Assembly (NCBI GenBank): GCA_030018895.1
Contig: JASEHM010000001.1
Location: 2,199-66,198 of the forward strand
DNA length: 64,000 nt
Source of the DNA: Candidatus Omnitrophota bacterium
GTDB taxonomy: Bacteria; Omnitrophota; Gorgyraeia; Gygaellales; Profunditerraquicolaceae
Reading direction: 5' to 3'
Below, piece by piece: positions 1 through 36,000 of this stretch. Position numbers and translations under genes: made by a program. The notes beneath the pieces were generated by a model. It was not told where the DNA came from, did no database searches, and saw nothing but the letters and a program-made list of their open reading frames with translations. Each line of letters starts with the position of its first letter. Position 1 is the first letter of the stretch.

Positions 1-3000
1 CTTCAGATTTTAACCTATCTTAAAGGTTTTCAGCTTGACGTCCCAGAGGGATGTGCTGGAAATCCCCTACCTTCTCAAGGTTGGATTAATAAAGGAAAAA
101 TATCAGTAGGAAAAATATCAAAAGACATAGAACTCACAGGCTATTTCTCCTTTATTATAAATCCTGTACAGACAAATAGACGTAAGTTTCAAGCACAGGC
201 AATAGCCACAATCCCTTCAGAATTTTTAGGTATGGCTAAAGAAAAGGATATTGAAAAAATTGAGGTTAATTCAGCTACTTTTGGAGGAAGCGCTAAAGAG
301 CCTCTGGCGCGTACTTTAGGTACAGCGGACATATTTAGTAAAAGCAAAGAGAATAAAAATGATTTTGTGAATAGAATAGACGTTGATATTATTGCCAATA
401 AGAAAAATAAGGAAGAGGCTTTTTGGAATGTAAATCAAAAAACGCATACGTATTTTCAGCAAGGAAAAAAAATAGAAGAGAAATACACAGGTTGGATTGC
501 TGATCCTGGTGTAGTATTTCAAGATAATTTAGAAGTAAAACGCAAGATTAAACAAGAATTGGAGGCAATAGGTCTGAACAATGTTAATATATATTCAGAG
601 CCGAACATAGGAGCACATGTCATTCCCGCGAAAGAGGGAATCCAAGCGTCCGTCGGTGACTGGATGCCCGCTTTCGCGGGCATGACATCCGTTCCCCCGT
701 TCACTGACATATTACCAGATATTATCAGTAACAGTATCACTGTATACAGTCGTGATTCTAAAGGCGAATATGGAAAAAACCCATTTTTCTTTGGCCAGGA
801 ATCAACGCAAGATCCCTCCAGTGGATGGAGCGGCGCTTTTGTTTACGCAGATTTTAAAGGCGGGAACTCCCAAATAATCTATGATTATAACAAAGAAAAA
901 GTTGATAAATTAATAATCGGCGGCTTAATCAATCAAAATTCTACTGATGTACGTCTTATAATAGGAAGGGAAGACAAAGGCATTGAATTAACCAAGGACA
1001 AAGGAATTATTATATCAGAAGGGAAAACAGGCCTTTTAAAGGCTGTGCTTGATCATTATAATGGTGACAATAAACTGTTGAATCAGGAAATTAATGATTT
1101 TATTGTTGTTGCTTTGCCTAAACCTAAACAGGGATTTTTGCCAAACGCAATTACCACTCAAGAAAATATTACAGCTGCCTATAATGTTTTTCATTCAAAA
1201 ATTAATCCAAATGAACAAGATGAACAAGCAAAGAGCCAAACAAAATCTATAGAGAATGCACTTGCGCATTTACAGGGTAGTTATAATGAAGGCCTGAAAA
1301 CAAAAGTAATTAGCAACTTATCTTCTGCTGATTCTTCAGCCACGATAGGCGTTTTGACTCATCTTTGGACAAGCGATAACTACAATTTTGCTGTTAGTGA
1401 AATTATTGGTAAGGTTACCTTGTTTAATATCGGCAGTGACTTTAATGTGTACACTGATAATAGTGTTTTGACAGTTAAGGGTTTTGCCCGTCCTTATGAT
1501 TCTCGGGTAGGCTTTGACAATACAAGAATCATTAGTACGGTTGAAAAAAAAGACGATGATTACAATGTTGACCGTAAAATAGCCGCACTCTCGGGTTCAG
1601 AGGCAATTAATGAGCCAAAGATGAAACTTTTTGCTGATTTTAAGTTTCCTCTTGAAATGTTAATTTTGAATAACGAGAATAACAAAATCATATCAGCAGG
1701 AAAATTAACAAAAACAATAGAGTTTGTTGCTCGTAAGCTTGAGGGATCTGAAAAAGAAGGTTTTCATGTGACTCAGGATAGTTGGTTTCCTGTTTTGTTG
1801 GGTCACTTATTTAACCGTGACAAAGTTAAAAACTTCACAAAAGAAGAAATAGAAACAGCAAACAAAATGATAAAAGAGTTTAAAGAACAGCATTTTACCG
1901 GTAATATTTATCCCCAAATCAGGTTTTCTACGGATGACAAAGGCAGGCCGGATATATCTACTATATCTACGCTTTTTGTCGCAGGTTTACCTGAATCAAT
2001 TTCCGAAGTAAGTGGAAAGAAAATATATGTTCCCTCAGGAGAAAATAAAACCAGCAAAGTAATTACTCTTGGCGGCTTGCTTGGAGATGAAGGCCAATAT
2101 CAAGCTTGTTTGACGCCTAGAAATTATATTGCTAATAAAGAGCTCTTAGAAATATCCGGTTTAGCAGAGTCTAATGCCGCAGTATTTTTCCCTACTGTAA
2201 CAGGATTTTATGGCCGTATACCTCAAATAGGAGAAGTAGAGAATTTAGTATGGTCAGATAAGAGGCCACAAGGCAATGTTTCTTTAAAAATAATTGAAAA
2301 CTCTCCTTTTGAGCCGCTTTTTTGGGGAAAAGGAGGAATGCTTGGTAATGAGAAGCCTTCTGACTTTGGCTATAACAAAGAGATTAAATATCAGCAGTTT
2401 AACAAGGTTTTAACAGACGCTAGAGTTAATCAGGATGAAAAAAGCGGACATAATGTGCTAATAGGTCTTTATGGCCGTATGCAAGAAGGTAATGCTCAGG
2501 ATAAAATTTTTAATAGCTATAATGCTATTTTTCAACCTTTCTCAAAAGAAAAAAAATATTTTTCCTCCCGGATTATTGACAATACTCCTTACACAGAAAA
2601 CTTAAATTTTGCTAGTTTTGAAGGCATTGGTTCTTCAGAAGGAGGCATTAACTGGAATAAGGGAGAGATTGAAACAAGCATATTTGAGGGCAAACAGGAG
2701 TTTATGAGTCAAAAGATTGTCCCTAAGATTATATCCAATATAGTGTTTTTAGACTGGGATATAAAGAATTTTAAGATTGAGAAGGATTTAGCCTCTGGGA
2801 AGAAGAATAAGTCAGAAGGGCCTGTTCTTGATGGTTTTCTTTATCTACGTTTAGCAGAAGCAGAAAAAAAAGGGCTTTTACGCGGGGTTGTTTCTAAACT
2901 GAATGTAGAAGCAAAAGATGCAGGAGGGTATGCTTTAGCTTCTGGGAAGCTCTGGGAGGGTTTTGATTTCTTTAGCCCATCCGGAGGAGAGATAAATCCT

Positions 3001-6000
3001 TATTTTAGAGGACAAACCTTTTTAACTAACAATGCTGAGTGGCAGGTTAATTGCTGGGATAAAGAATCAGTTGAAGGGTTCAAAGATGGTAAGGGTAAAA
3101 TTAATCATATAAAAACAAACTCGGATAAGAAATTCACTGGTATTGATTTTGCAAATAAAGGGATTAAGCTTATTGATAGTGCTTTTCTGGCTCTTTACAT
3201 AGGCGAGGCTAAGAAAATTAAGTTTAGTGCAACAGGAGAACTTACCTTAGGCAAGGATACAAATTATGCCTTAAGTTTGTGGATAAATAATACTAATAAA
3301 AAGATAAGTAAGTTTTTGAACAATGTTAATAAGGGTTTAGGGTATCAGCTTGTTGTTAACCCTAAAACCAGAGATTTGGCAATAGGTAATACCCCCGAAA
3401 GCATTCCTTTTATCAAAGATGAAAAAATTAATCCGAAAATTTTTGAGAATTTCGCTTTTTCAATTATAGAAGAGGGAAAGATTAAAATCAGCAGAAATTT
3501 TGGGATTAATAATAAGGAAACAAGAGATATTATTCCTTTAGAAAAAACAAAAAATATCGCAAGCCTAACATCAGGTAGTATTCTTCCTTGGTATAAGGGA
3601 ATAAGGCAGATTCCGATTACTGCAGGGTATAATGATATTGCCATAAAGATTGATTCTTCTGGCTCAGGTAGTAAACCTTCTACTTCTAATAAATTAGCCA
3701 ATAGCTATTTTGAAATAGATCATGTTGCCCAGATTACTGAAACTGCAAATGAAGGAAAATACGGAAAGATAGGAGTGGTTAAAAAAGGGGAAAAACTTCA
3801 TTTTTCGTTAGTTACAGAAGAAGGCAAGGTTAAACTGTTTGATTTTGCTTATAAGATTGTTCCTGGGTTTGAGGGGGTAAATGTTAATCTTCCTCGGCCG
3901 GAATACTTTGGCCGTAAGGAAGAAAATGACATTGCTGTGCGGACAAATGGAGGAGAGTTTCTCAAATACGCTTCGGATGTATATATGAATAAAGGAAGAG
4001 CCAATGCCAATGGAGAGTGGAAGTTCTATGGGCATCGTCTGATAAAAATAAAAACGACTACGGATTCTTCTATTTTAGGGGCAGACAAAGATAATGCTGT
4101 TTCCCGACAGAATCGTTCCATAATCTTTAAAGATGATGAAGGGAAATTTGAAGTGAAAGGGATTGTGCCGGTTTATAAGAAATGGGGAGGCGATGTTGAG
4201 AATATTGGCACAATTGAACAATTACAAGACTCAAGCGGCCTGAAATGGAAGCGCTTAACAGGAAACATAGCTAAGTATTTAACTGCGGATAGTCAAAAAA
4301 ACTATAGCTGTAAAGGAAAATGGCAGGTACAATTTCCTGCTATTCTTTTAGAGAAAACAGACGATAATAAATATAATATTACAGGGGTGCAAATGCTGGT
4401 TGGCAAGGGAGGAGCTCCTTATAAGCTTCCTTCTGCGTCTTTGTCTGAAGGCAAAAAAGTAGGAAAACGGGCTGACAAAGCTGACAAAAAGGAATTAATA
4501 ACCACGCTTCGGGGTTTAGGCAGAGATATTGTTGAGCTTCCTAGAGGAAGTTATAGCATAAGGCTTGAGAATAAAGATAATAAATTTTCTTTAGGTAACC
4601 TTGATTATTCAGAATTAGGCACAATGAAAATAATTTTCCAGAAAAACTTAGCCATTCCGCATAATCAAAATGAGGTTTCTTATTTTTATCCTAAAAATAG
4701 CAAAGGAGAGGTAGTTTTGCATTACTTAGGAGACAGCCCTGTTGTAGAAGGTGTTCAAGGCGTTAAAGATCTGGTTCATATTAAGCATGATTCTTCCCAA
4801 AACACAGGGAATATAATACAGACATCTTATCTGGGTTTAAAACCGGAAGAAGTTTTGAAATTAATAAAAGAGAATCCAAGTGCACTAATTAAGGTAGGTA
4901 AATTTGGAGGAATTAAATCCGGGGAAAAAGCAGAAATTACCTGGATTAAAATGAGTAAAAATAACCTTCAAGGGGCGTATGATCCCAATGCCCCTTCTGA
5001 GATTGTTTTCGTAGATGGCAATTCCAAGGGAATTTATATAACTCCCCAGGGAGTAACAATTTCTTCTCTTGCGGAAAAAATAGAGATAAATGGCAAAAAA
5101 GTTGAAGATATATCTCCTGTTGGTGTATATTTTTATCGAGATGAAAAAGGGCAAAAAGGATTTTACTCCTGGGGTCCTTTAGGGACAAAAGAAATTAGAA
5201 TGTTGAAAGACGGAGAATTTAAATATTATACTATTCTTCCTGACGGCAGAAAGATTAATGGGCGGATAAATCCTAATCTTTTTAGTTTAGAAAATGCCAG
5301 CCTGATTAGTTTTTCCTCAGGTCAACTTGCTTTTGTCTATCAGGGGAAATTTTTTGTAGGAGAGGAAGAAATAAAGGCTTTAAATAAACTTCCCCAAGGA
5401 GTTTTAAATACAATTTTAAATGGACAGCAAACCCAGAAGATGTTTTCTGAATATGTCAAGGGGATTAAGGAAGCAGGAAACCCCAAAAAAGCAGAAGAGC
5501 TTAACAAGCATTTATTGTTTAGGGGTGGGGCTATTATAGACGATGAAAACCGAGATAAAGAAGCATTAGGGTTTGATATTTTTAGCCAGGAAATTAAGCA
5601 AAAAAGATTTAAAGATTTAGGAATATCTAAAAAAGATGAAGCTTGGCTGAGAAAAGAAGCTACTGAGCGTTTGCAAGGTTTAAGCCCGGAAAGTAAAGAA
5701 TATAAATACGGATACAGTAAGCTCTTTTCTGAATTTACCAATAAATGCGGCAAGCAGATGCTCGCTAAAGGATTTGTTCCTTTGGCTGTAGTTGATGATG
5801 CAGTAACTTGGGCTGATGCAGGAGTAGGGGTAGGGGCAACTGCGCTTGTTGTTACGGGTTGTGTTTTTGCGGCTCCTGTGATACTAGCGGGAGGGGCGGT
5901 AGGGGCGGTAGGGACAATACTTATAGGAACAGGCGTGAGTATAATAACAGGACTTGCAAATGCGGAATTGTTAAAATACTATACCACAGGCACGCACTTA

Positions 6001-12000: not shown

Positions 12001-15000
12001 AATGAAGGTTATAACGCCATATCTCCTAATTATAATTGGTCATTGCAGAATGCAGTAAGTCTTTTAGGCGTGGCTCGGGTAGCTAAAAGATTGGATTTCC
12101 TTAAAAATATCTATACTGAAGAGATTAAGAATTCTAGTGTTAATTCATATAGCGCTGTTATACAGATGGTAGAACATGCAATAAACAATGAATCTGGCGC
12201 ATCTAAGAAAGGAAAGGCAAAATTGCCTTTAGAAGGCAGGCAGGAAATTTTAAGAAATGCTGAACATTTAAGAAATATGTCTAATGGTTCCAGAGGAGCT
12301 CCTCTGGCAAGGCAGACTCTCATTGATTCCATTTTAAAATATATCCCTGCCTCAAGTTCAGGCTATAATACGCTTAATCTAAGCAGCATCATAAATAATC
12401 AGTTTGTCCCGTCTCAGAACAGCCAATTTAATCCTATAAATGCTAATTATACAACCTTAGAGGATTATCAAAAGTTAGTTAGTCTCATAAATACAATAAT
12501 AAATTCTGAAGCAATAAAAGAAATACCATCCTTAGATACTGCCCCGATTAATCGATATGCTATTGCTGATGCATTAGTTTCATTAGTTAATCCTAATCAT
12601 ACGTATTCTTCATTAAACAGTGCTTTAGATACCTATAATTTACTTACAAAAGGAGCGCAAAATGCTTTGAATACCGCCATTACATCCAATTCGTTTGTAT
12701 TAAATATATTTTTAGCCCAGCACCAGGATGTTTTAGATGATTTAACCGACCTTGAGAAATATAGATATGCTACTGATGCCTTTAGATCTGTTATCACCAA
12801 AGAAAATTTATTCACCTCTAATCAAATAACCCGGTTAAATAAGATTACGGACAAATTTGTTAATATAATGATGAAGTTAATTAAAAACCGCGATTCACTC
12901 CAGATAGAAAAATACAGAGAGCCTACTAGCAGTCAGGTTAAGGGTTTTGTAACCCAATTATTAAAATCTTTTGACAACAAGACTAATTATTTAGCAGCGT
13001 ATCAATTACTCTTTTCAAAGGTAATGTATAAAGAACCCAAGATTAAGGAGTATTTAAAGGAACTTATACTAAAGGCTAACCGCGACCAGACAGATTTTGA
13101 GAAAGAAATTATATTGCCTGTTTATTATTCTTCCTTTAATAATGCAAGCCTTAAGGAATTTAGCGCTGTCAGGCTAGATGTTTTATTGACAAACTATTTA
13201 CAAACAGAAGTTGATGAAGAGAAGAAAGAGTTAGAACGCAGGTATCTTTTCTTAAATAGGTTGAATAAAGATAAAGTAGAATCTATTAAAAAATATCTTA
13301 AGAAGGCGCAAGATTCATTAGAAACAAAAGGCGAAGTATTGGAAAATTTCTCAGGTAGATATGAACAATTTGCAAGAGATGTTAGCGAGATCAACAGCGG
13401 CTATAGCGCAGTAGAAATGGATTTCCTTGCAGATATGCTAAAGGATAGGTATTACAGGAGTTATTCGGTAATGGCAGAGTTAAACAAAAATGCGAAAGAC
13501 AGGATCTTCGAATTGTTTGATAAGTTGAATATATCTTATGATAAGAACAGCATAAATTTATCCACAGCAATAAAAACAATGAATATGCTCTTGGAAGGTA
13601 ATAAAAACATCAGCGAACAGAACCCTGACTTGTTAAGAACTTTAAAAACCTTTAAGTGGATTGATTATCACACAGGCCTTAGGGATAAAATGGGTATCTG
13701 GTATGCGCCATATTTTAGGGCTGAAATGATGCAAAGGTATATGCAGGGGCTGATTGATTATCCGCAAGAGCTTTTAGATGCAAGAGAGGAGTTGCAGAAA
13801 AAGGTAAAAGAGGAAGTATTAACCGGAGACATAAGCAAGGAGTATCTTAAAGAAGTAGCGCCGACTTTAGTTAGAAGGCTTAAGGAAATTTTAGATGAAG
13901 AAGAACAGGTTATATCGAAGATAAAAGATAAGTCCAGACAAGAACGAAAGAATAAAGAAGAACAATTGCGGAAGGCAAAAGACGCACTTGGAGAATTTGA
14001 AAAAAATCTTGAACAGGAAAACGTTACGCTTGAGAAACTTTATGCAGGGTTTAAGCAAATCAACCAAACCAATAAATCTTTGGAAGTTGAAATTCTTCCT
14101 TTTGAAGAGCAGGAAAAACCAGAAATAAACGGCAGGAATGATGATTTTGGAAGAGGTGATATTACACCTAACTGGCTGATAAGGCTTAATCTTAAGTTAT
14201 TTTATGACCCAGCTAAAGGCAGAGGTGTTTTATTAAACCCAGGCGATTGGAGAGAAGATGTAAAAGGAGTAGCGCTTTTCCATGAAATTACCCATAGTTT
14301 CTGCGATTGGTTAGGTGAACTTTCAGGTATTGAGCGCCTGAAAATAGGTAATTCTGATAATGAAGGCATAATTGATTCCATAACAAAGAAAGATAATCTT
14401 GGTTCTATGACTCCGTTTGCGCGTAAGGAATTTTTTAAGTTTGGTGATTTGGAAGATAAAGATGGGAGTTTTGCAAAAAAGTTACAAGGAGCATATGATC
14501 TAACAAAAGGAATCTTTATGGAGAAAACCAATCAGGTATCCAAAGATATAAACGCTAATATTTTTCAAGACCATACGAAAACCCCTTCTTCTAAAGAAGA
14601 ATATACTAAGCTGGGTAAGTTACTTGTAGAACAAAGAAAACTTAGAGAATTAAAAGAAGATGTATTTAAAGGAGAAAAGACTGCTAAAGAGGTTGAAGAA
14701 CTATTAAATGATAAAAAAGAATGGCAGAAAATAATTGGACAAGAGGTAAGAGAGGCAAAAGACGATAAAAAACACAGTGCGCTTTGTAATGAAAATGCCC
14801 CTTCCTCTGCAGTATCTTTTACTCAACAACCTAATAAATCTGATATTGGCGCGGCGATTCAGGCGTGTTCTATGCCAATTGAGTTTGAAGATGAGATGAG
14901 GATGCTTTGGGAGGAGTGGAAGGAGCGGCTTAAAAGTATTATTCCCGCAATCTTTAATTTTAGAACAGCCCTTCTTCTTCCTCAGGGAATATTAGTAATT

Positions 15001-18000
15001 AGCTTAGATTTGGCTCTGAATCAGCAGAAAGAGCGGATATTCTTTGTGATACAAGGCAGAGGAGATGAATTAAAGGAGATTTATAAGAAATTAAGTGTCA
15101 GGACTCTTCGCAATGACGCGTTAACATCAAGAAGTAAAATTTTAAAAGCGGCCTTAGAGGCAATAATAAGATTTGAGGTAACAGTTCAGCCCCCGGAAGT
15201 AACCGTGTCATTGCGAGGAGCGGCAGCGACGAAGCAATCTCTGGTTAAAAGAAATAATAATGTAAAAGTGCCGGTAGCATCGCTTCCTTCTTCTCCGGCG
15301 CTACCAGCTGGGGAGAACACAACTACACAGGCAGGGACATTTATGGCAACAGGTGGCTCAGTTCTTACTGGAAACGCGCTTAATGGCACTACGTCAATAT
15401 ATCCTGCTATTCCGTACTCAATAAGCGTTTATCATTTAGGCAATAGAACAACACAGATTCCCATTAATATAGGTTCAGTAACTATACTTGGCCCGCCTTA
15501 TGGTCCTTCGACTGAAATTTACTCAATTTTCAGCCAAGGTTTTAGCATAAATGGGCAATCGAATCAACTATTTGGCGCACTTGTAACAGTTTGTTCAAGT
15601 AGCATGGCTTTAGATAATACTAAAACCGTAGGTTCTGGAGTTGCAAGCAGGGAAAGCAACAATACAGAAGATGCCCAAAGTGTAATCGCAGGTTCTGTAA
15701 ACGGAACTGGTGATGCTAGTAGTGCGATTATTAGAAAGGTACCAGGATTAAGATTACCTGAACCTTTAAGCAGGTTACCAAAGTGGCTTAATATTACGAT
15801 AGCGCCTCTTGGATATTCCTCATGTACTACGGGTTCGCCTAAAAAAGGCGCATCAGGTGTGCTTGGCAAGTTTTTGTTGTCTGAAGTTTTTTCTTTGGGT
15901 AAAAAGGACGAAGTTAGTGGTGCCGGAAGTGCGATTGCTGCTAAAAAGCAACTAAAGGCTTGGAGTCTACCTAATAGAGCAGATAAAACTTCGGGTCATT
16001 CTTTAAATGTAACCAATTCTTTTTCAAATAGAATTCCTGCAACATGCGGTTCGAATAGTTTCCAAGTTAACGATTTGGGAAATACAGGACGTTTTCTGGG
16101 TATAAACAACATAGAACTGAATTCAGCCGCTAACCATAAGGCACATGGATCAGCTCCTCCTTGGAATGTATTTAATTCTCTGCCCAATAAAATTTCCGCA
16201 TTATTATTTGCAAAATTCAACAATCGCCCCTTTAATCGCATCCTTAATATAAGCACCGGCATTCCATTAGAAGCGCTAGATTCAATTCTTTTCAATAAAA
16301 ATCTATTCGTAGAAAATAGCGGCACACAGGGTCATAATTACTTTAAAAATTCCGCAAGAAAATCTAACGTAACAGATCAACTTTTGAATGTATCTCGTCA
16401 TTGCGAGGGCAAAGCCCGAAGCAATCTCAAAATAGAGATTGCTTCGCCTTCGGCTCGCAATGACATCAATTATGTTAGTGATACTGTCATTGCCAGGAGC
16501 GACAGCGACGAAGTAATCCTTCTGTATGTCATTCCGAGCGAGGCCGTAAGGCCGAGTCGAGGAATCTATGTTCTTTTTAGATCCCTCGACTCGCTTTGCT
16601 CGCTCGGGATGACAAGACAACTGTCGCTCGCTCGGGATGACAAAGCGCTTCCGAAGGCTGAACTGTTACCTATCGCGGGATTTGCCGCAGGCACTTTTTC
16701 AGGCACTTTCACTGTTTCTGCTGATAATGATTTGAACATTCTGGCGGTAAAGGTAAATGATACTGCTTTGGTTAAGGTGAGCGGCAGCACAATAACCGCC
16801 CAGAAAAGTGTTTTCAAAATAGGGAATGACATTGTCATTGGTCATGTTCTCTCAGCGCAAAACCAGGAAAAAGAAAGTGGTTCCCCGATGGCAAAAGGTA
16901 TACCTGTTGAACCGCTGAACTTGGTTCAAAGAGAGTTAGAACTGCAGGCAGTCCAGATTATAAATTATTTAGCTAAAGTGAAGAAGGTAAATTTTGCCCA
17001 GGCAAAATACAAAATAATAATAGAAGCTTTAATGTCTATATTTGAGATTATTGGCGCAATAGAAAAAATTACTTGTCAAGGCCCTCCTTGGTCTGTCCTT
17101 ATTTTCGTTATTTTAAAAGGTCAGTATAATCAAGGAGGAAAAAATGTTGAAACTAATAGAATTTTAAAATCAGATGAGAACCTTAGAAACTCAATATGCA
17201 ATTCAATATTTGAACCAAATGCGCCAAAATTGTCATCTCTGGGAACAAAAGGAAAGACAGCTCAAAGCTCTCTTAAGCAGATCTCAAACAATGTCAAGGA
17301 AATTAAATATAACTATGGCATAATAGAGTTAAATTTCTTACTCGCTTTCGCCACTGTTTTATTAATCAAGCCGCAAATGCTATTTACCAAAACAGGTATT
17401 TTAGTGTTTGCGGTTTTTGTTGTTTCTAGCAGCCTCCCAGCGACCCCCCTCCTGGGACTGACCTTCGCTACGGAGCTGCTAGAGCAACAAATAATATTTG
17501 GAGGTGCGCTATGTGTCCTATTAAGTTTAATGAATTACAATTTAACCACATTGTTGAATCTGCAACAGGACCCACAGTCTTTGCAGCGGCTCGTGAAAAT
17601 GGCAGCAGACATTTCAGGCTCTTCCTTATTAATGAAGAAACTGGCAGTGTTAGAGTTCGTAATGGCAGTGCTAATACCTGGGAAGAGCTTTGGGGCAGTG
17701 CTCACGACAGTATCATCAACTGTCTTATTGCAAGCCGTAATAGCTGCATCCTCACTTATAGGACTAGAACAGGTTTCTAAGCGGTTTTTTTCTCCGTGGG
17801 TAATTATAGGGATGTCTGGTATTGCTGGTGTTGGCATAGGTTTTGTTTCAGCAAATCCGGTTCTTTTAAATTTCGTAATTGGAATAGTGGCTGGTTGGTT
17901 ACTTATACGAGAAATAAATAAAAATGTATCCCAAAGACATTTACAATCTTATAGAAAAGCTTCAACACCATGGCCTTTCCTAAAAATTGCTGTTCCTCTT

Positions 18001-21000
18001 TTAATGATTTTTTATGCCTGTTCTGACCTTCTTGACGATAAATTTTTGAAAAATAGAGAATTTATAAGAGGTCCAACCGTAGAATTGGTTCTTGATGTTA
18101 ATAAGGATGGAAGAGGAGATATTCGTATATCTTATCCGGAAAAAGATAAAATCTTTTCTAATGATTGGAAAGTACTGAGTGAGGTTCTTAGCGGCATACC
18201 TCCAGAAGATTTACAAAAAATAAAAGTAGTGGAACTTCGTTGGGAGCATGGTTCTTATAATTATCGTCCTGATTATAGCAAGAAAGAAGGAAAAACTCTT
18301 TATCTTACCATACAGAGTCTCAGACATTATGAGTGGGATAATGGTTTGAATATTTCTATTGACGGCAGCCCTAAGGTGGATGCTTTACGAAAACAGATTG
18401 AGGAGTGCCTTAAAACTTCCAGCTCCGTTACCTCAGATAAACGTATCTTGAGCCTGTTTGATCTTGCAAACAACAGACGAAGAGCGCAAGTAATAATCGG
18501 TATCTTAGGTATTACTTTACTTTCTTTCTTAAAAATAGCTCCTTCTGTTGCCGCAGTGCCTGAGGCAGAACAAGTTTTAAGAAACCCACCTGTAGAGATA
18601 TTTTCTCATCATACCTCCACTGTTACGCCTGTTTTTCCATTAGAATCAGCTCAAGAAAAATTTTCTGATGATGAAATACATCAATTCTCTACATTTGAAA
18701 AATTTGAAAAAATAGATGAGTTTGAAAATGTTTTGACCAATTATAGAAGGAAGAATGAAGGGTTTAACAAATTATATAAGGAAATAATTGAAGAAAAAGG
18801 CGTTGAAATTGTCTTCTTAAATAAAGATTTTGGTTTTCCTGCTGAATATAGGGTGTGGGAAAGAGAAAATGGAACAATTTTGTTTGATTTGCCCCAGTTT
18901 AAAAGTGGAGAGGAAATGGTTGTTGCCCTGGCACAAGAGTTATTCCATGCAGAGCAATTTATAGGAATAGCCCAGAAGACAAAATGGATTTCTTTCGTGC
19001 CCTTACGTTTATATTTAAGGGGTTTATTCTTTAGTGTGGAAAATGCATTTTTTGGAAGGGTATTTTTTGAAAAACCCGCCTTTGATTACGCTGAGAAAAT
19101 TAGAAAAGATTTTGGCTTACCCCAGAAAGATAAGTGGGAGGATCTGGAAAGATTTTATCAATTTCAACGACCAATGGATATTGTAAAGCCTTTCGTTGCA
19201 TTATTCCTATTGGTGGCATTAATGGGGCTTGGATATTGTTTTGTATATTACTTTGTAAAGAAAAATAACTTTTCATTAAATACCTTTAAAAAAGTAATAG
19301 TTCAGCTCTTGGAAGCGTCTCGTCGTCATTGCGAGCGACCGAAGGGAGCGAAGCAATCTCAAAAACGTGATTGCTTCGTCGCTGTCGCTCCTCGCAATGA
19401 CAAAATGCTTCCAAGCGCTGAACTGTTACTTAAAAAAGGAAATACCTCCAGCTCCATTACCACAAACTTTATAGAGGAGATAGTAAGGTTTAATGAAGAT
19501 TTGGAGAAAGCTGAAAATATTCCGTATTTAGTAAAGAAAGATTCTTGTTCTGTTGGTTCTCCGATTATGGGTAAGGCGGGCTCTTATTTAAAACACGTCA
19601 TATTTCAACAAAAAGGATATTTAGTAATTCTTGCTTTTGTTGTTGCTTTTGCCGCAGCATATTTGATGTCTATCCCTGCTGGAAGTATAGCTGCTTTATA
19701 TGAGGCGGGGGCTGCTAAACTGATTTTTTTACAAAAATTACAGTTGTTCGGTTTGTTTATGGCTTGTATTACTTTGGCAGTAATTATGCTTCAGTATTCC
19801 TTTACAGCTGTGATAGGAGTTATGAAAATCAAGAAAGGTAAAAATGCAGTATGGAGATATAGCTATAGAGAAATCTTCGGTAAAAAAGATTACCAGGCCT
19901 GGAAATCGCGTCTCAACTATGGAGCGCGTCGTTTGACGTTTGAGTATTTAAAGAATAATTATAAGCCTGTTGAGCATGGCCCGGTTCGGGATATTATAAA
20001 TACATTTAAGAGCTGGAAAGTTTCAGTGATAGTGTTTCTAATAGTTTCACTTGTATTAATTACCGCTCCGGAAGCCGTACTAGGATTAGCGGTTTTTGTA
20101 AATGCTCTGATTGTTACCTTACTTTTTCGGATATTACTAAATGCTACGATTTGGTTCTTCTATGATTCCTTCCCGCGCCGTACTGCATTAGTTGACCTGG
20201 CATATGCGTATTATAAAAAAGATCTATCAGGTGTTGCCAATAAGTTTATAGTAATAGATGAGAATAATCCTGATGGCCGAGCAATAATCTTGACAGACAT
20301 TGAAAAAGAAGCAGATAAATTCAAAGCTGAACTTAGAATCGGGAGCAAAGGTTACCGTAGGCAGCTTTTTGTTACCCGGTTAATAGAAATGGCTCCGCTT
20401 GAATCAGCAGGGCTCAAGTTTGTGAAAAGCAGGATGACAATTATCCTGCTTAGCGCGATCATTGTCCCTGCGCTTATGCTGAAGTTTATGCCGGGAATGA
20501 GCAGCGAATCATTCCTTTCGGAAGGATGGCTGCAAAACTTCTTTATAAAGTATCACTTTCCTCATACCTGGAGCGAGCTTATGCATACGGCGTTCCTTGT
20601 ATACGGGTTCAGGTACTTTGATTTAAAAAGAATAGCTATGATGATCTGGTCAGCAATGCTGAATAAAGTCTTTCCGGGTATGCCTATTGATATAAGCGCG
20701 GCTTATGATTTATATAAAAGGAAAAATAATGATAAAAACGTGAAGAAGTATCTTAAGCTTGCGCTTGAAAGAGGACTTTTAAACTCCTGGGGCAGAAAGA
20801 ATTTGAAAACGATATTGCGCAGTGAAATGGAAATGAACAAAGTTGTATTTGAAAAAGTAGGTAAGTTTGAGCTTGGATGGTGGGTAATCTCTCGCCTAGT
20901 GGCAATTATCATTACAGCGTTTGTATTTATACCCTTGATCCCTGTTTTTGTCGTTTTTTATCCTTACGTTGCAGGAAAGAGAAAACAGGGAGTAAGAGTT

Positions 21001-24000
21001 AACCCGTTGATTAAACTTGCGGCTCAAGAAGGAAAGCAATTCTGGGCAAGCCTTGTTTATATGTCAACGATAAGCGCGGAAATAAGCGCAGTTATAAGCG
21101 GAACAGATTGGTTGGCTACGCATGCGCATCCGATTTTAAAGCCGTTTGGTTTTATAGCCCAGAAATTTGCCTATGCTTTGGAAAGTGAGTATGGCATTAT
21201 ATCTCTCGGCCAATATGCAAACTTAACCTTTACCGGTATGACGAATATTGACCTTACTAATGTGGCATATCACTGCATGGGAGGAAAAGGAGATTTTCAG
21301 GCAAATTATGAAATTAATGCGGCTTTTGGCTTAATCCAAGAAACAAAGATAAAGGAAGAAGCAAGAAGAATTGTAAAAGAAATATCGGAATTAGAGGCTG
21401 AAAAAGAGCTAAAGTTTAGCCAGCAATATAGGCTTGAGGAATTAAGGCATAAGCTAAAAGATATATTTGCTTTGGCTAAGGCTAAACAATTAGAGGAGGA
21501 GGTAAAGAGGCTCAATGACTCAGCTAAACCCAGACAAGGGAAGACGTTTGCTGATGTGGAGGAAAGGTTTAATGAGTTAAAAGGGCAGGGATTTCCTGGG
21601 TTTGATCCTGTTAATGGGGATGAGCCCTGGGTTAAAGAGGTTAAGGGATATTTAGGGCAATGTAATTCTCAGCAACTCCAAATTTTAGAATCTTTAATCA
21701 AATCAGGCAAATTAAGAGCTGGGCCTGATGAAAAGTCAGTTTTTTACGGTGCTAATAATGGCGAAATTATTCTTATTGACATCAATAACAATCCTGATTT
21801 AGCCGCAACTTTAATATACGAACTTAATGCCTTCCAAGGTGGCACTCCTGAAGAAAATCAAAAGGTAGAAAGAGAATTTGAGATTGCTTCGCTCACCAAG
21901 GACGCTCGCAATGACGAAAAGAAAGCGGACGTTCGCAATGACGAGGGGGCGCAAAATGCGGACGCTTGCAATGACGTGGGGGCACAAAATGCGGTCGCTT
22001 GCGATGACGAAAAAAAAGTTGACACTTGCAATGACGAAAAGGCGCAAAATGCGGTCGCTCGCAATGACGAGGCGTCTCTATCAGGCATTAATTGGCAGAT
22101 GCCTATACAAGGATTTGACCCTAAAAATATACTGTCTGAAGATGAATTTAACGCTCCTCGCTCTGGGGGTAATGGCCATGAAGGCCTTGATTTCCGTGCT
22201 TCTGAGGGCACACCTATTCACGTAGCTGAACAGGGGATAGTTTTTTATGCAGGAGAAGGGAATGGTTATGGAAAGGTAGTTATTATTAATCACAATAATG
22301 GCTATTTTACTTTATATGCCCATAATCAAGAAAATCTGGTTAAAATAGGTGATAAGGTAGAAAAAGGCCAGAAAATTGGCCTGGTAGGTAAGAGTGGTAA
22401 TGCTGAGCAAATTGGAGAAATGTTGCATTTTGAGATACGGCAGGTGGCTAAAGAAGGAATTATTAAGGAATATTCAGATTTGGTTGCTTCGGAGAATGAA
22501 GAAAATGGTACAGTTAAAATTTTAGATCCTGCAAAAGAATTAGAAGCCCTATCAGAGAAGCCGCAATTAATGGTGGATATGATGATGTTTTCGGGGAATA
22601 GTTATCAGCATTCTTTTTTAAATATACCAGTAGATGAATATCTTGTTAATAGTTATCTTTTGGGTGTTGAAGAAGAATATTCAGACTTAGTTGCAAAAGA
22701 GAATGAAGATAATAACACAGTTAAAATCCTGAATCCTGCAGAGAAACTTAGCGGACAAGATCCAGATAATGCCTATTTTGGCTGGTCCCATGAAGAAGTA
22801 AATAGAGAGATGAGTAAATATGCAAGGGAAAATGCGATAAGAGAGCCTAATTTTGAAGAGAAGAGGTTGATTGAGTCGGCTTTAGGCAAGGCTTTAAGAT
22901 ATTTTAGCAAGACTAATTTGGGCAGGAACCCGCCAGGGGTTAAGATTATTGAGACAGAAAAATTAACCTTTGGCGCAACTTATGGTGAATACAATCAAAC
23001 CACTTCTCAAAATAGCCTCCTCTATATAGAAAAGCCGCTTATTAACAGTCCTAAATATAATCTTGCCTGCGTATTTATCCATGAACTTAATGGAAAATCT
23101 CATTTCTTAAACTGCTTAGCAGAGTATGATTTTAAATTAAGACAGATTGGAGCAGAATTTAGCTTACAGGTAAGTTTATCTCTTGATTCTCTGGCTAAGA
23201 ATTACCAGGAAACAAAAGCCAACTTTAGCAGAAATACCAAAAACACCATTATTGCCACTGCTCTCTTAGCCAGTCAAATTATCTCTCAGTTTTCAGCTTT
23301 TGCTATTCCTGCTGTAGAAGCCGCCCCTTCCGCAGTACACAGGGTGGTCACCCCAGAAACTTATACTGTTCGGAAAGGCGATACATTATGGAGACTTTTT
23401 AAGGAAAAATGGAATGATATTTATCAGTTGAATCCTCAGATTCAGGGCCGCAAAGGCGAGAAAATAGACCCTGCATATCCTGATACTAAGCAAATAGTAA
23501 TTATCTATCCAGGGGAGAACATTAAGATACGCGGGGAACAGGAACAGGTTAAAGCATCTATAGATAAGACTAAGATAGACAGGGAAGAGGTTAAAGTATC
23601 TACAAAAGATAAGACTGAGACAGACAAGAAACAAGTTTCAGAAGTAAATCAGGGTGTCATTCCCACCCCTGTTTTCACGGGGGTAAACTCCAGCGGGAAT
23701 TCAAGAGGGGATGACAGAATGGATGCCCGTTTTCACGGGCATGACAAAAACAAGAGGCGAGAACTTCAGAAAGCTGAACTGTTACAGATAAAAGGAATTA
23801 GACAGGAAGGAATCAGCCCAACCTGTGCGCTTGAACAGGTTTTTGGCCAGGGTTATCAGAATTGTCAGCAAGAATTGGAAAAGAGATTTAATACCTTGGT
23901 TAAAGAATCAGGGGTTGAAGAAAAAGGGATAAAATACCATGAAGAAGGCCTGACTTTGGAGGATTTGAAGGAGAAATATTTAGAAGGTAAGCGCTGGAAA

Positions 24001-33000: not shown

Positions 33001-36000
33001 GAGATTATCCTAAGAAGAGAATTAAACAAGCCAGAATTGAATTTAGACGAATTCATAAAATCTTTATCCGAGGAGAAGGCGAAGGTAGTGTTAAATACAA
33101 TAACTACCATATGTTACGACCGCAATGCAAATGATGAAAAGAAGAAATCCGATACTATTATGCACAAGTATTTCCTTCTAGCTTTAGTGAAGAATAAGGT
33201 AACTATCTCAAAAGGAGGTATTTTCAAGCCGGATAATTTACCTATTTCTGAAAAAACCAATATTCATGACGCAAAATATACAAGCTGGATGAGCTTTATG
33301 TCCAGAATGAGAGGAGAAATCAATTTTTCTCTTGACTGGGACCACATTCATCCATTCAGCGAACTTTGGTTTATACCTAATGCAGGAATGGAGTTTCTTT
33401 TTGATGACTGTCTCGTAGGCGGTCCTTACAATAGCGATATTTTTTCTCGCCCGATTTCTACGACTGCCAATGTTTTTGGTTTGATGGAAGAAGGCTGGCT
33501 TGACGGAGAGCAACCAGTTAAGGACGAGATTGATTCAATTCTTTTCTATGGGAAAGGTTTTCAAAAAGTAGCAGCTTTGAGGAACTTTGAGATGCTGGCT
33601 GCAGATGATAGCGTGCAGGAAGATGCTTTTGGTTTTGCAAAAGCCCTAATGCAAGGAGGCAGGTCAAGGGCATTTCACTTCTTTAAAATATTAAAAGGTT
33701 TAAGTAATCTTGTATTGGGAGCATTAATTCCATTGAAAAAATGGAGCGGTGATTCTTCAGAAGCAGTAAGATTACCAGCAGGCATTAAATTCTTTTTGAG
33801 CCCTAATATTTCCTGGACGAAAAAATTAGGGAATCTCATCAACTGGGGATTCTATATGAAAAAGCCCTCTGTAATGAGGGTAACAGTTTGGGTTATTATT
33901 CTTTATTATCTCGCTAATCTCAATCCTTGGTTTGGATTAGCTTTCTCTTTATGGTTTACTAGTATTCTTCTTGCTCAGGCAATTTCCTATGGCGGATTCT
34001 TTAAGTATACAAGTAAATTTGGAAGGATAAAAGGGGCATTGTTCTTTTTGCGGGATTTACTTACCAAGTTCTTTATCTTTTCCACTGGCATTATCCCTTC
34101 TTATGCTGATAGTGTAAAACGCGGTTTTAGCGCCTTTTGTAAGTTTATTAGGACAGGTGGCAAAGCCGGCACATTAGGCCGAACTAAAGGGAGTGAACTT
34201 TATATCTTTGGACATAAAGGAATCAGTGTAGCAGCTGCGCTGTTACTGTTTATTGCTTTTGCATCTTTTGATCCTATGAAATTTATAGTCTGGCTTCCTC
34301 AAATCGCTACAATCGTGGGCTGGTTAACGTTTATCTTCTTATTGGAACCGGTAAGTTCTAAAAAGCACGTACTTCTGAATATTGCTAATGTCGGATTAGG
34401 GTTTATATTAGGAATAGTAGATTTTGTTGCCAATATTATGACTAATTCTAAGGTTTTAAGTATCCTTACCGGCATACTATTATTATCACTTCCGGACTCT
34501 TTACCTGCCTGGATTCTTATATCTTGTATTGCTATAGCAGGTAGTATTGGCTTTGGCTTAAAATGGAGCAGGATGCTCTTTAATAAAAAAGTTTGTGAAG
34601 AGGCAAAGACTGTGCTAAAGCTGGCAAAGGATTATAAGATAAAGGGATATGCAGTTACTATACTTGAATCTTTTGTTTTGTCTACCGGATTTCATTACGC
34701 TTTAGAAGGTTATATTGAAGGAAGAATTAAAGGCTTACCTTCATTTATTATGGTATTACGTATTCTGTGGTTATCAAGAGATAAAGCACTTAACGAAAAT
34801 ATTAAAAAATCAGAGTTAGAAAATAAGCAAAAGGAAGAGGAAAAGAAGAAAGCAGAAGAGAGACAGAATGCAAAAGGCTCGTCTCCGGTAACGACTTCTT
34901 CACCTATTCCAACTCTAAATAATACTCAGCCAGATCAAATAATAAATACCGATAATGCGAACAACGAGCGCTTTGGCATTGCCAGAGAGCTTACCAAGGG
35001 CTTGGTAGCAGAATTACCCCAAGTATTAGGTAAGGTAGATATCTACGAGTTACTTAAAGCAGCTAATGGCATTCTGATTCTTGACCGTAACCGCTCACCC
35101 ACTGACATAGATGCTCATGCGGATAAAGAACGTAACTCTATTTGCGTCACTGTGCGTTCTGATGAAGACTTCCTTAATTTATCTATCCCAGAAGTAGCTA
35201 CCACCCTTATCCATGGAGCCATAGAGCTTGCCACAAAACAAGAAGCCTTAAGACGTAATATCGATTGGGAACAAATCGCATCGCTTGCCCAACAAACTGC
35301 CCTTAACTTTGCCCAGAAATATCAAGAAGTCATTACCCACAGATATGACCGCTTGCTGATGAGACAAGATATGCAGGTTGCCTTTAAAAATGGCTGGCGC
35401 GTAAAGAAGATTTACCAGACTGCCTTTAACCATGTTCAGGCTGATATGTATGCCTCCCAGGTTAATCCTGAAGATTATCCTCAAGACACTGAAGTCATCC
35501 CTGTAGCGGACCCCCCTCCTTATTATAATAAGGTAAGGGCTTTTGGTAATGGCTTAGCTAACCTGAATATAGTAAGGAACTTTGTAGAAAGGCTAATCCA
35601 GGAATTAAAATTAGAGCCGGGAACCTATAATTTAGTAGAACTTCTGGGTAATACCTTAATTATCGGCTTGCACGGTGGCGGCCAATCAGCCAGGAATCCT
35701 AAATATACCCAGATTGGTAAATTTAATGGTTATCTGCCTATAAGGAGCTTAAACAAAGACTTACCCGCTACCCTGCAGGAAGAACTCCTGGTGCCAGCAG
35801 CGGTCTTAAGCAGAATCTATCCAGACAACTTACCCGGCTACATCAATATCTACGGAGATGCCTTAATTACCTTTAATCCAAGAGAAGTAGAAAAAATTAT
35901 TAAGGCTAATCCTGAAATGGCCCAGGGTTTGATGATCTTCTTAAGAAAAGTTCCTGCTCGCGAAGCTTCTACTTGGGGTGCAGGTGCCGTAGATGAATCC

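Follow-up and report, generated by a model that had tools for sequence, protein, structure and literature searches.

In-frame palindromic elements with IS66-type termini in a giant gene of Candidatus Omnitrophota

We analysed a 64,000-nt stretch of DNA (hereafter referred to as the window; positions 2,199-66,198 of the forward strand of contig JASEHM010000001.1, assembly GCA_030018895.1) from a Candidatus Omnitrophota bacterium. The window lies within a single giant gene and contains about ten copies of small palindromic elements, across all of which the reading frame of the gene stays open. The elements have two layers: a transposable element of the miniature inverted-repeat type (MITE), with the terminal inverted repeats (TIRs) and 8-bp target-site duplications (TSDs) of an IS66-type insertion sequence (IS), and inner hairpins resembling repetitive extragenic palindromes (REPs), which also occur alone. 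Copies of the MITE are dispersed in other genomes, and autonomous relatives encode a transposase that belongs to the IS66 family. We consider it very probable that the giant gene has been hit repeatedly by the IS66-type MITE and by REP-like hairpins, and that the copies now found in-frame are the survivors. The MITE would have been mobilised in trans, the inserted peptides would be translated, and the copies would have been filtered by selection.

The elements and their dispersal

A preliminary description of the window had listed eight loci as one family with TIRs and internal hairpins. All eight are present within 1-5 nt of the listed positions, and their motifs occur far above chance. The 13-mer GTAACAGTTCAGC, with up to 2 mismatches, is found at 11 sites against 0.98 expected, a number that none of 100 shuffled sequences reached; ten of these sites are termini listed before, and the remaining one (site 34234) looks like a chance match. 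Likewise, GTCATTGCGAG (up to 1 mismatch) and GAAGCAATC are found at 14 and 8 sites against 0.45 and 0.92 expected, respectively. The elements total 1,253 nt, or 2.0% of the window, with a GC content of 50% as compared with 38% in the gene. Folding was applied to six of the eight loci (all but 15178-15245 and 23627-23785) and gave structures far better than those of shuffled sequences in every case (z = -5.5 to -11.8). Its complete, half, composite and minimal forms all exist, and so do its motifs, but the single family resolves into two layers, the IS66-type MITE and the REP-like hairpins that also stand alone. Each copy keeps frame 1 open, as had been stated, although this is automatic in a window that is open throughout. 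The features are listed in Table 1, in which CGTC-1-type and REP-A denote two kinds of inner hairpin described below.

Table 1. Elements located in the window and their host gene (positions are those of the window)
Feature	Position	Strand	Remarks
REP inverted dimer, no outer TIR	616-690		two canonical CGTC-1-type hairpins; fold z = -6.8
Isolated REP-A unit fragment (GTCATTGCGAA)	15104-15117	-	motif match; absent from the preliminary description
Half MITE	15178-15245		one TIR and constant REP-A unit, other half missing; starts in codon phase 0
Composite 301-nt MITE	16369-16669		left TIR degenerate (GTAACAGATCAAC), right TIR perfect; no recognisable target duplication
Canonical 136-nt MITE with TSD	19286-19437 (element 19294-19429)		adds 48 codons; fold z = -11.4
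REP-A unit and tandem array	21878-22072	-	intact unit at 21878-21915, then tag-end amplification; absent from the preliminary description
163-type MITE with CGTC-1-type hairpins	23627-23785		right TIR perfect; left TIR lacks its outer 13 nt, frame kept
163-nt MITE with TSD	42968-43146 (element 42976-43138)		adds 57 codons; fold z = -5.5
REP-A inverted dimer, no outer TIR	43176-43272		in REC-GGDEF linker; fold z = -5.9
Minimal TIR-TIR palindrome	53214-53270 (43 nt, 53221-53263)		6 further complementary flanking bases; no target duplication
Interior of host gene	1-64000	+	>21,333 codons, both ends beyond the window; giant gene of multi-enzyme type

Two copies are flanked by 8-bp duplications that the preliminary description had not noted: TTAAAAAA at 19286-19293 and 19430-19437 encloses the 19294-19429 element, and AAGAAGCG at 42968-42975 and 43139-43146 encloses the 42976-43138 element. 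The latter begins directly after a receiver (REC) domain (Pfam Response_reg, ending at nt 42969), and removing it together with one copy of the duplication restores a continuous frame. The 23627 copy is 90% identical to the 42976 copy over 150 nt. A 45-nt tandem repeat (2.2 copies, 23541-23637) adjoins and overlaps its degenerate left end and may account for the loss of the left TIR. The half copy at 15178-15245 matches one end of numerous full copies elsewhere with 95% identity (63-64 nt aligned). The interior of the 16369-16669 copy consists of a REP-A dimer and further REP-like units and folds at -145.7 kcal/mol (z = -11.8); its 301 nt plus 8 make 309 nt, or 103 codons. The minimal palindrome at 53214-53270 has 27-nt arms that are 96% complementary (z = -11.6), and a 42-nt analogue of it is found in another contig (L220). 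Peptides encoded by the inserts include VTVQRSEVNQGVI... and ...DCFVAVAPRNDK....

The TIR is 22 nt long, GTAAYAGTTCAGCnnnnnGAAG, that is, GTAAYAGTTCAGC followed by five variable bases and GAAG, and is present at both ends of the 19294, 42976, 16369 and 53221 copies. A scan of one genome per species (596 Gb) with a 16-base pattern, for which we estimate that ~277 chance matches are to be expected, yielded at least 109 listed loci, mostly unrelated Lachnospiraceae repeats that carry the same 13-mer; among the 109 matches listed, six are Omnitrophota loci, four of which contain the exact 11-mer GTCATTGCGAG, and the 103 others all lack it. A stricter pattern, applied to metagenomes, gave 115 loci, many of them from one groundwater data set and one Joint Genome Institute (JGI) metagenome. 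These Omnitrophota-type contigs contain 77 unique copies with paired TIRs, most often 136 nt long (n = 29), followed by 135 nt (n = 15) and 137 nt (n = 10). Where the flanks were readable (n = 70), a perfect 8-bp duplication was found in 55 and one with a single mismatch in 6 more, and the target sites are AT-rich (77% against a background of 56%). For instance, three non-coding copies in Omnitrophota metagenome-assembled genomes (MAGs) each have their own 8-bp duplication (TCATATTG in L019, AAAAATTA in L083 and CTAAGATC in L032). The 19294 copy aligns over its full length with 20 copies from other contigs, is 84-90% identical to family members, and has 119 near-full-length matches in the fetched loci. 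The element alone is what the window has in common with the fetched metagenome loci. The element search gave no match in viral contigs.

These results bear out the earlier proposal of a mobile, non-autonomous palindromic family lying in-frame: its termini recur in many other genomes, mostly in intergenic positions and with TSDs. The outer element has TIRs, TSDs of fixed length, a small size (43-301 nt) without a transposase, multiple dispersed copies and autonomous relatives with the same ends, these relatives being located in other contigs. The suggestion that the family is active or recently active fares less well, as the closest copies are 84-90% identical, no empty site was found and the window holds no transposase.

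That the segments should be ordinary repeats internal to the protein, or should have been produced by metagenome assembly, is scarcely credible. The window does hold true repeats (described below: 2.6 kb duplicated in tandem, and 125 nt repeated directly), and MITE copies break short-read assemblies, with many matches at contig ends. The similarity among the elements, however, is at the DNA level, palindromic, found in both orientations and common to non-coding DNA elsewhere; furthermore, their flanks are unique, the frame is continuous across every copy and the duplications are exact.

In many of the metagenome contigs (L110-L224), a MITE copy lies no more than ~100 nt from the start or end, suggesting that the repeat family breaks short-read assemblies of these organisms. 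The 13-mer GTAACAGTTCAGC is also found, in identical form, in gut Firmicutes (L001-L108: Fusicatenibacter, Muricomes and other Lachnospiraceae), where it has two settings. In one, it is part of a tight hairpin, GTAACAGTTCAGCnnGCTGAACTGTTAC, often beside a second palindrome; in the other, a different repeat, GTAACAGTTCAGCCATGCGAAGATTCAGACAG..., has it at its end, and 98-nt elements bounded by TIRs in Muricomes (L014 5825-5922 and L101 542-639) are among these. The 13-mer possibly marks related IS66-type ends in this distant phylum; no transposase was found within the 8-kb Lachnospiraceae loci that carry it. A deltaproteobacterial MAG (L048 536-827) has a 292-nt element with the same 13-mer ends, 20-nt perfect TIRs and an unrelated interior, which lies inside a 223-codon open stretch and has no visible duplication.

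An IS66-family relative and the inner hairpins

An Omnitrophota MAG contains an autonomous element of 1,993 bp (L009 3485-5477) bounded by the TIRs GTAATAGTTCAGCTCTGGGAAG and GTAACAGTTCAGCTCTGGGAAG, with the duplication GTTAATAG on both sides. It encodes a 131-aa DUF6788 protein followed by a 458-aa transposase, which matches Pfam DDE_Tnp_IS66 (E = 8.6e-34) and zf-IS66, as well as the NCBIfam equivalog for the IS66 family, NF033517 (236.9 bits; cutoff 180). A second autonomous copy of 1,991 bp (L165 681-2671) has a transposase 62.5% identical to the first and carries a REP-A hairpin unit (GTCATTGCGAG...GAAGCA) directly inside each TIR. Deleting the middle of an element like this leaves the layout of the 136-nt MITE, namely TIR, hairpin unit, short loop, inverted hairpin unit and TIR. 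The presence of hairpins inside both ends thus makes the MITE look like an internal-deletion derivative of the IS. Members of the IS66 family have inverted repeats (IRs) of 20-30 bp beginning with GTAA and 8-bp direct repeats (PMC11946415, PMC12888890). The present elements have a 22-nt IR beginning with GTAAC or GTAAT and an 8-bp direct repeat, and do not share the typical GCG continuation. A limited literature search found no description of an IS66-derived MITE.

Another candidate autonomous element, L086, was rejected, as it proved to be an unrelated ISL3 element inserted into a MITE end. The MITE left end (L086 3430-3463, within 3430-4965) is broken there by an ISL3-family element that begins with GGCTCTTTCC and has its transposase split into a zinc-ribbon open reading frame (ORF) and a DDE ORF.

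The inner hairpins fall into two kinds. CGTC REPs have been defined by an unpaired CGTC tag (often TGTC), a stem of 8-9 bp beginning with AT, a loop of 4-5 nt and a CCA tail; they frequently form inverted dimers, have intragenic copies and lack a dedicated transposase (Di Nocera et al. 2013, PMC3733652). A scan for tag, stem and loop found three canonical CGTC-1 hairpins in the window (618-641 on the + strand, and 664-687 and 23723-23746 on the - strand) against 0.065 expected, and 17 more canonical CGTC-type units are present in related loci. The first two fit the definition fully, including the CCA tail, and compose the 616-690 dimer, which reads TGTC-ATTCCCGC-GAAA-GAGGGAAT-CCA and the reverse complement of TGTC-ATGCCCGC-GAAA-GCGGGCAT-CCA; the third has TCC after the stem on its own strand.

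The second kind, REP-A, has the layout YGTC-ATTGC-GAG-(variable GC stem-loop)-GAA-GCAAT-C, with GTCATTGCGAG..GAAGCAATC as its constant parts. REP-A was counted 259 times in the window and the Omnitrophota-type loci together, with a TGTC tag in 216 units and a CGTC tag in 40. Their inner segments are of 96 different sequences, with many distinct perfect stems (for instance, GCCCCgtaGGGGC, GGCACgaaGTGCC and GCCACCgcaGTGGC), which indicates that pairing is conserved rather than sequence. As in CGTC REPs, the REP-A stem begins with AT, but it has two parts, 5 bp and, beyond an internal loop, a variable GC stem, and its tail differs from CCA. Judged by this sequence layout, REP-A falls outside the four published CGTC families.

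REP-A units lie about equally inside (127) and outside (124) paired-TIR MITEs, those outside being exemplified by 43176-43272 of the window and L019 7021-7168. As about half of the units are outside MITEs, the hairpins are a second layer with a history of their own. Inverted dimers, like those of CGTC REPs, are found at 616-690, at 43176-43272 and inside MITEs, and intragenic copies occur. Three loci of the window have no outer TIR (619-686, 43184-43272 and 21878-22072). In the last, the array has a period of 33 nt, or 11 aa, repeated 4.7 times, and lies ~100 nt upstream of the Peptidase_M23 domain.

The preliminary description had put forward TnpA of the IS200/IS605 type as the cognate enzyme. 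This is not what the two autonomous elements with the same ends encode, their transposases being of the DDE type and IS66 family. In our judgement, a broader form of the idea is very unlikely, namely that all of the elements belong to one REP/REPIN system, with a tyrosine (HUH) transposase of IS200/IS605 or RAYT (REP-associated tyrosine transposase) type as its mobilising enzyme. The idea may still hold for the inner units alone, which are REP-like, form inverted dimers and lack TIRs in about half of the cases. The TIR-bounded element, on the other hand, has 8-bp target duplications, which HUH transposases are not known to make, and its ends are common to IS66-family DDE elements. The tag is YGTC (CGTC or TGTC) instead of GTAG, and defines a class without a known dedicated transposase (PMC3733652); in tag and in duplication alike the element departs from REPIN/RAYT systems. 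No RAYT-like gene was seen, though no systematic search for one was made.

No match to Rfam was obtained at the gathering score over the whole window, and the three matches at E <= 1 within 15000-24000 are at chance level, none being on an element. A self-splicing intron or a curated structured RNA thus finds no support in Rfam.

Reading frame and host gene

The left TIR read as G/TAA and the right TIR read as GC/TGA (slashes mark codon boundaries) each present a stop codon, and two of the three phases have a TAA or TGA in the TIR ends. When the length plus 8 is divisible by three, the stops of both TIRs are avoided by a start on codon position 1 and by no other, and this permissive start yields the peptide VTVQ...AELL in either orientation. 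This, the only open phase, is that of all ten termini in the window, five left and five right. The four complete copies of the window (301, 136, 163 and 43 nt) are all 1 mod 3 in length, and the 77 copies elsewhere are spread over the three residue classes as 41/19/17. Standard copies elsewhere are free of stops in the permissive phase in 35-40% of cases per orientation, as compared with 10% of shuffled sequences, and phase 1 is never open. By a calculation from these phase and length figures, about one in ten random insertions would not disrupt the gene that they enter. The in-frame state would then reflect a filter of survivorship or selection and not a special property of each copy. Since the surviving copies obey the filter of phase and length, selection to keep the very long frame open is implied. 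Later changes have come in multiples of three as well, as seen in the 33-nt (11-aa) amplification at 21878-22072 and in the frame kept after the TIR loss at 23627. The copies lie outside recognised domains, in Lys-rich linkers.

In-frame copies were also found in other Omnitrophota genes. With the REC-GGDEF region (42601-45000) as a query, three Omnitrophota proteins at NCBI matched the 57-aa MITE peptide alone, with 76-85% identity. In a valyl-tRNA synthetase (ValRS; P0027), the MITE peptide is internal (...FAKNH/ATVQRSEV...PEAELL/QNHS..., slashes marking its two ends). Residues 3-205 and 277-494 of this protein align with residues 2-203 and 208-427, respectively, of Thermus thermophilus ValRS (1gax_A), so that ~67 extra residues stand exactly where the T. 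thermophilus enzyme has 4; the comparison amounts, at the level of protein sequence, to an empty site. Two more segments of P0027 that are absent from T. thermophilus ValRS, STLRLHSGSMVSEVPSLSRDEVEPS... and CADESAHRLTGSSAHRLTDE (residues ~495-530 and ~569-588), may be further repeat-derived insertions. A 136-type copy with the duplication AAACAATA lies inside a LigT-like gene (L133, P0001). In three further proteins (P0004, P0018 and P0021) the MITE peptide is N-terminal, probably upstream of the true start. The MITE-peptide search found only five proteins among 5.8 billion, which indicates that in-frame copies are rare in called genes; the same search put no other giant protein with MITE peptides on record.

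The course of events that would fit these observations is as follows. A MITE, typically of 136 nt with variants of 163 and 301 nt, carries the TIRs of an IS66-family IS of ~2 kb, from which it probably arose by an internal deletion that brought together the two hairpin units located inside the IS ends. It would most likely be moved in trans by the DDE transposase of the IS66 family, with 8-bp duplication of an AT-rich target, and the hairpin units would spread or persist alone as single units and inverted dimers. Within a gene, only those insertions that fall at codon position 1, have a length of 1 mod 3 and a stop-free interior would leave the frame open. The surviving inserts would add peptides of 14-103 residues, and would afterwards decay or be reshaped in threes, by truncation or by tandem amplification of 11 aa.

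Two other explanations take the in-frame copies as something other than survivors of insertion. One of them, that the elements are former intergenic spacers absorbed when neighbouring genes fused into the giant frame, appears very improbable to us. The giant gene does look like ordinary gene modules joined in series (sigma-70, REC-GGDEF, PEP-utilising enzyme and glycosyltransferases), and MITE copies elsewhere are mainly intergenic. Nevertheless, the 42976 copy interrupts a standard REC-linker-GGDEF architecture and its clean excision restores the frame, phase and length conform to the rule in all complete copies, which is what insertion into a frame already present predicts, and the same subfamily is found inside a single-domain housekeeping enzyme, ValRS.

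The second explanation, to which we give a little more weight while regarding it as unlikely, is that the segments are exapted functional structures, strong hairpins retained within the very long mRNA (or the DNA) that serve as pause sites, as RNase-processing or stabilising sites, or as sites of recombination at module boundaries, rather than junk that the gene tolerates. Their folds are very stable (z down to -11.8), every copy is between recognised domains, the REP-A inner stems vary with pairing kept, and REPs have been proposed as RNA elements in other bacteria (PMC3733652). Against these points, in other genomes these elements lie mostly between genes and bear the scars of transposition, the window copies are decaying (lost TIRs, half copies and tandem slippage), and their positions follow no regular spacing. 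None of 37 long-range pairs in the family alignment has compensatory changes, all of these pairs being invariant and thus uninformative for covariation.

Several observations weigh against repeated insertion of an IS66-type MITE. Three of the six TIR-bearing loci (16369, 23627 and 53221) have no target duplication, and the case for insertion in the window is built from the remaining duplications and from homology to intergenic copies. An exact 28-mer representing the empty site of the 42976 copy had no match in metagenome contigs. Orthologues of the giant gene, with which empty sites might be compared, did not emerge either: a search of 5.8 billion proteins with 1,700 aa (14800-19899) gave no homologue at E <= 1e-3, and a query of 800 aa (42601-45000) brought up generic REC/GGDEF relatives only, with identities of 40% or less. 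The window's own protein product is absent from the collection of 5.8 billion, its contig came up in neither of the two public sequence collections, and translation of the giant ORF with its inserted peptides is a supposition. The window contains neither a transposase gene nor an autonomous IS, so that an IS66-type transposase would have mobilised the MITE in this organism if elements on other contigs are a guide. Of these, L165 has a transposase interrupted by an internal stop and no visible duplication. The TIR of the IS begins with GTAAC and not with the typical GTAAGCG, and the IS has a DUF6788 ORF in place of the classical IS66 TnpA/TnpB genes. The ISBst12-like subgroup of the IS66 family also lacks tnpA and tnpB.

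Frame +1 of the window has no stop in 21,333 codons, whereas the five remaining frames have 726-2,205 stops each. The Pfam domains encoded in frame +1 comprise Helicase_C, Peptidase_M23, four copies of Fucose_pyrophosphorylase, Glyco_transf_5, HATPase_c, Response_reg, GGDEF, Sigma70 r2/r3/r4 and PEP-utilizers_C. Multi-enzyme giant genes of Omnitrophota with a similar domain make-up have been described earlier (bioRxiv 10.1101/2023.11.21.568195); neither that work nor a 2026 preprint on complete Omnitrophota genomes (bioRxiv 10.64898/2026.06.07.730766) mentions MITEs or palindromes in giant genes.

Repeats of other kinds are also present in this gene. In one place 2,613 nt are duplicated in tandem (34843-37452 and 37444-40056), the two copies being 99.9% identical and offset by 2,601 nt, or 867 codons; this duplication spans nucleotidyl-transferase/fucose-pyrophosphorylase modules and is either very recent or made in assembly. 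A 125-nt direct repeat (52845-52966 and 61443-61567) is 91% identical and in the same reading frame (ETVSSAI..GCSEVDISCSAL..KMKGFVGSPVSRLLE); unlike the MITEs, it is non-palindromic and matched in none of the fetched loci, as befits an ordinary internal protein repeat. The GC-rich stretches 41416-41512 and 17401-17497 fold unusually well (z = -6.1 and -4.4, respectively, against mononucleotide shuffles), but have no element motifs and are not dispersed repeats.

Relation to known systems and significance

In-frame fusions caused by MITEs or REPs are already established for Rickettsia palindromic elements (RPEs), Coxiella QMITE1 and intragenic ERIC, BOX and REP sequences (PMC10969869, PMC5896051, PMC3733652). 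The comparison with RPEs drawn in the preliminary description is apt. RPEs, especially RPE-4 and RPE-6, are likewise small palindromes located in-frame in protein genes, to which they add a peptide and which survive (PMC3733652, PMC10969869); here, the same is found in the window, in the ValRS P0027 and in the LigT-like P0001. RPEs differ in the phylum and lifestyle of their hosts, IS66-type TIRs with 8-bp duplications have not been described for them, and ~ten copies are gathered here in a single gene. RPE-6 has been assigned, together with dRS3 of Neisseria, to CGTC-1 and RPE-4 to CGTC-4 (PMC3733652), and the canonical hairpins of the window fit the same published CGTC-REP definition. Through this one link of a shared definition, the relation to RPEs is probably more than an analogy.

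The closest structural parallel is QMITE2 of Coxiella burnetii, a MITE of 150-190 bp with direct repeats of 7-11 nt and a REP hairpin inside, whose truncated copies resemble bare REPs; QMITE1 of the same organism overlaps ORFs and encodes peptides (PMC5896051, PMC10969869). QMITE2 differs in that its REP is GTAG-tagged and a target of IS1111, no parent IS has been identified for it, and its copies are mainly in 3' untranslated regions and not in-frame.

With IS66 sequences, the autonomous relatives share the DDE_Tnp_IS66/NF033517 transposase, IRs of ~22 nt beginning with GTAA and 8-bp TSDs (PMC11946415). The window element itself has no transposase, its relatives have a DUF6788 ORF and no TnpA/TnpB, and the IR continues as GTAACAGTTCAGC and not as GTAAGCG. 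Neisseria dRS3 (CGTC-1) and REPINs have in common with the canonical hairpins the TGTC/CGTC tag, the 8-bp stem beginning with AT, the 4-nt loop and the CCA tail. The window units read ATTCCC-N8-GGGAAT, as does dRS3, and inverted dimers can form one long hairpin. CGTC REPs differ from REP-A, in which an outer stem of 5 bp is followed by an internal loop and by a variable inner stem rich in GC; the units here are embedded in a DDE-type MITE, and no RAYT association is known.

What is new here is the lineage, the IS66-family parent and the origin by deletion, the REP-A type of hairpin and the presence of ~ten copies within one gene; a limited literature search found no earlier account of these elements in Omnitrophota. 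The analysis ties a repeat that is abundant in Omnitrophota-type genomes, and so far without a name, to the IS66 family, with a likely origin by internal deletion from a hairpin-ended IS. In-frame palindromic insertion, best known from the obligate intracellular Rickettsia, extends to a different phylum, where it affects an essential enzyme and, repeatedly, one giant gene. In practice, short-read assemblies break at these repeats, and gene calls are extended upstream, past the true start (P0004, P0018 and P0021 are examples).

For giant genes known solely from metagenomes, it is an active question whether selection keeps the frame open. As every surviving copy falls into the one permissive class of phase and length, the elements provide independent evidence for such selection on the giant frame. 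We propose tentatively, and as a less probable extension, that Omnitrophota have an RPE-like biology in which IS66-derived MITEs and CGTC-type hairpins routinely land in-frame in genes from ValRS to giant genes, supplying linker and repeat sequence such as the 11-aa array at 21925-22072. If this were true, the phase and length filter would amount to natural evidence, similar to that of transposon mutagenesis, that a frame of >64 kb is selected as one unit, and mobile palindromes would contribute to the growth of giant genes.

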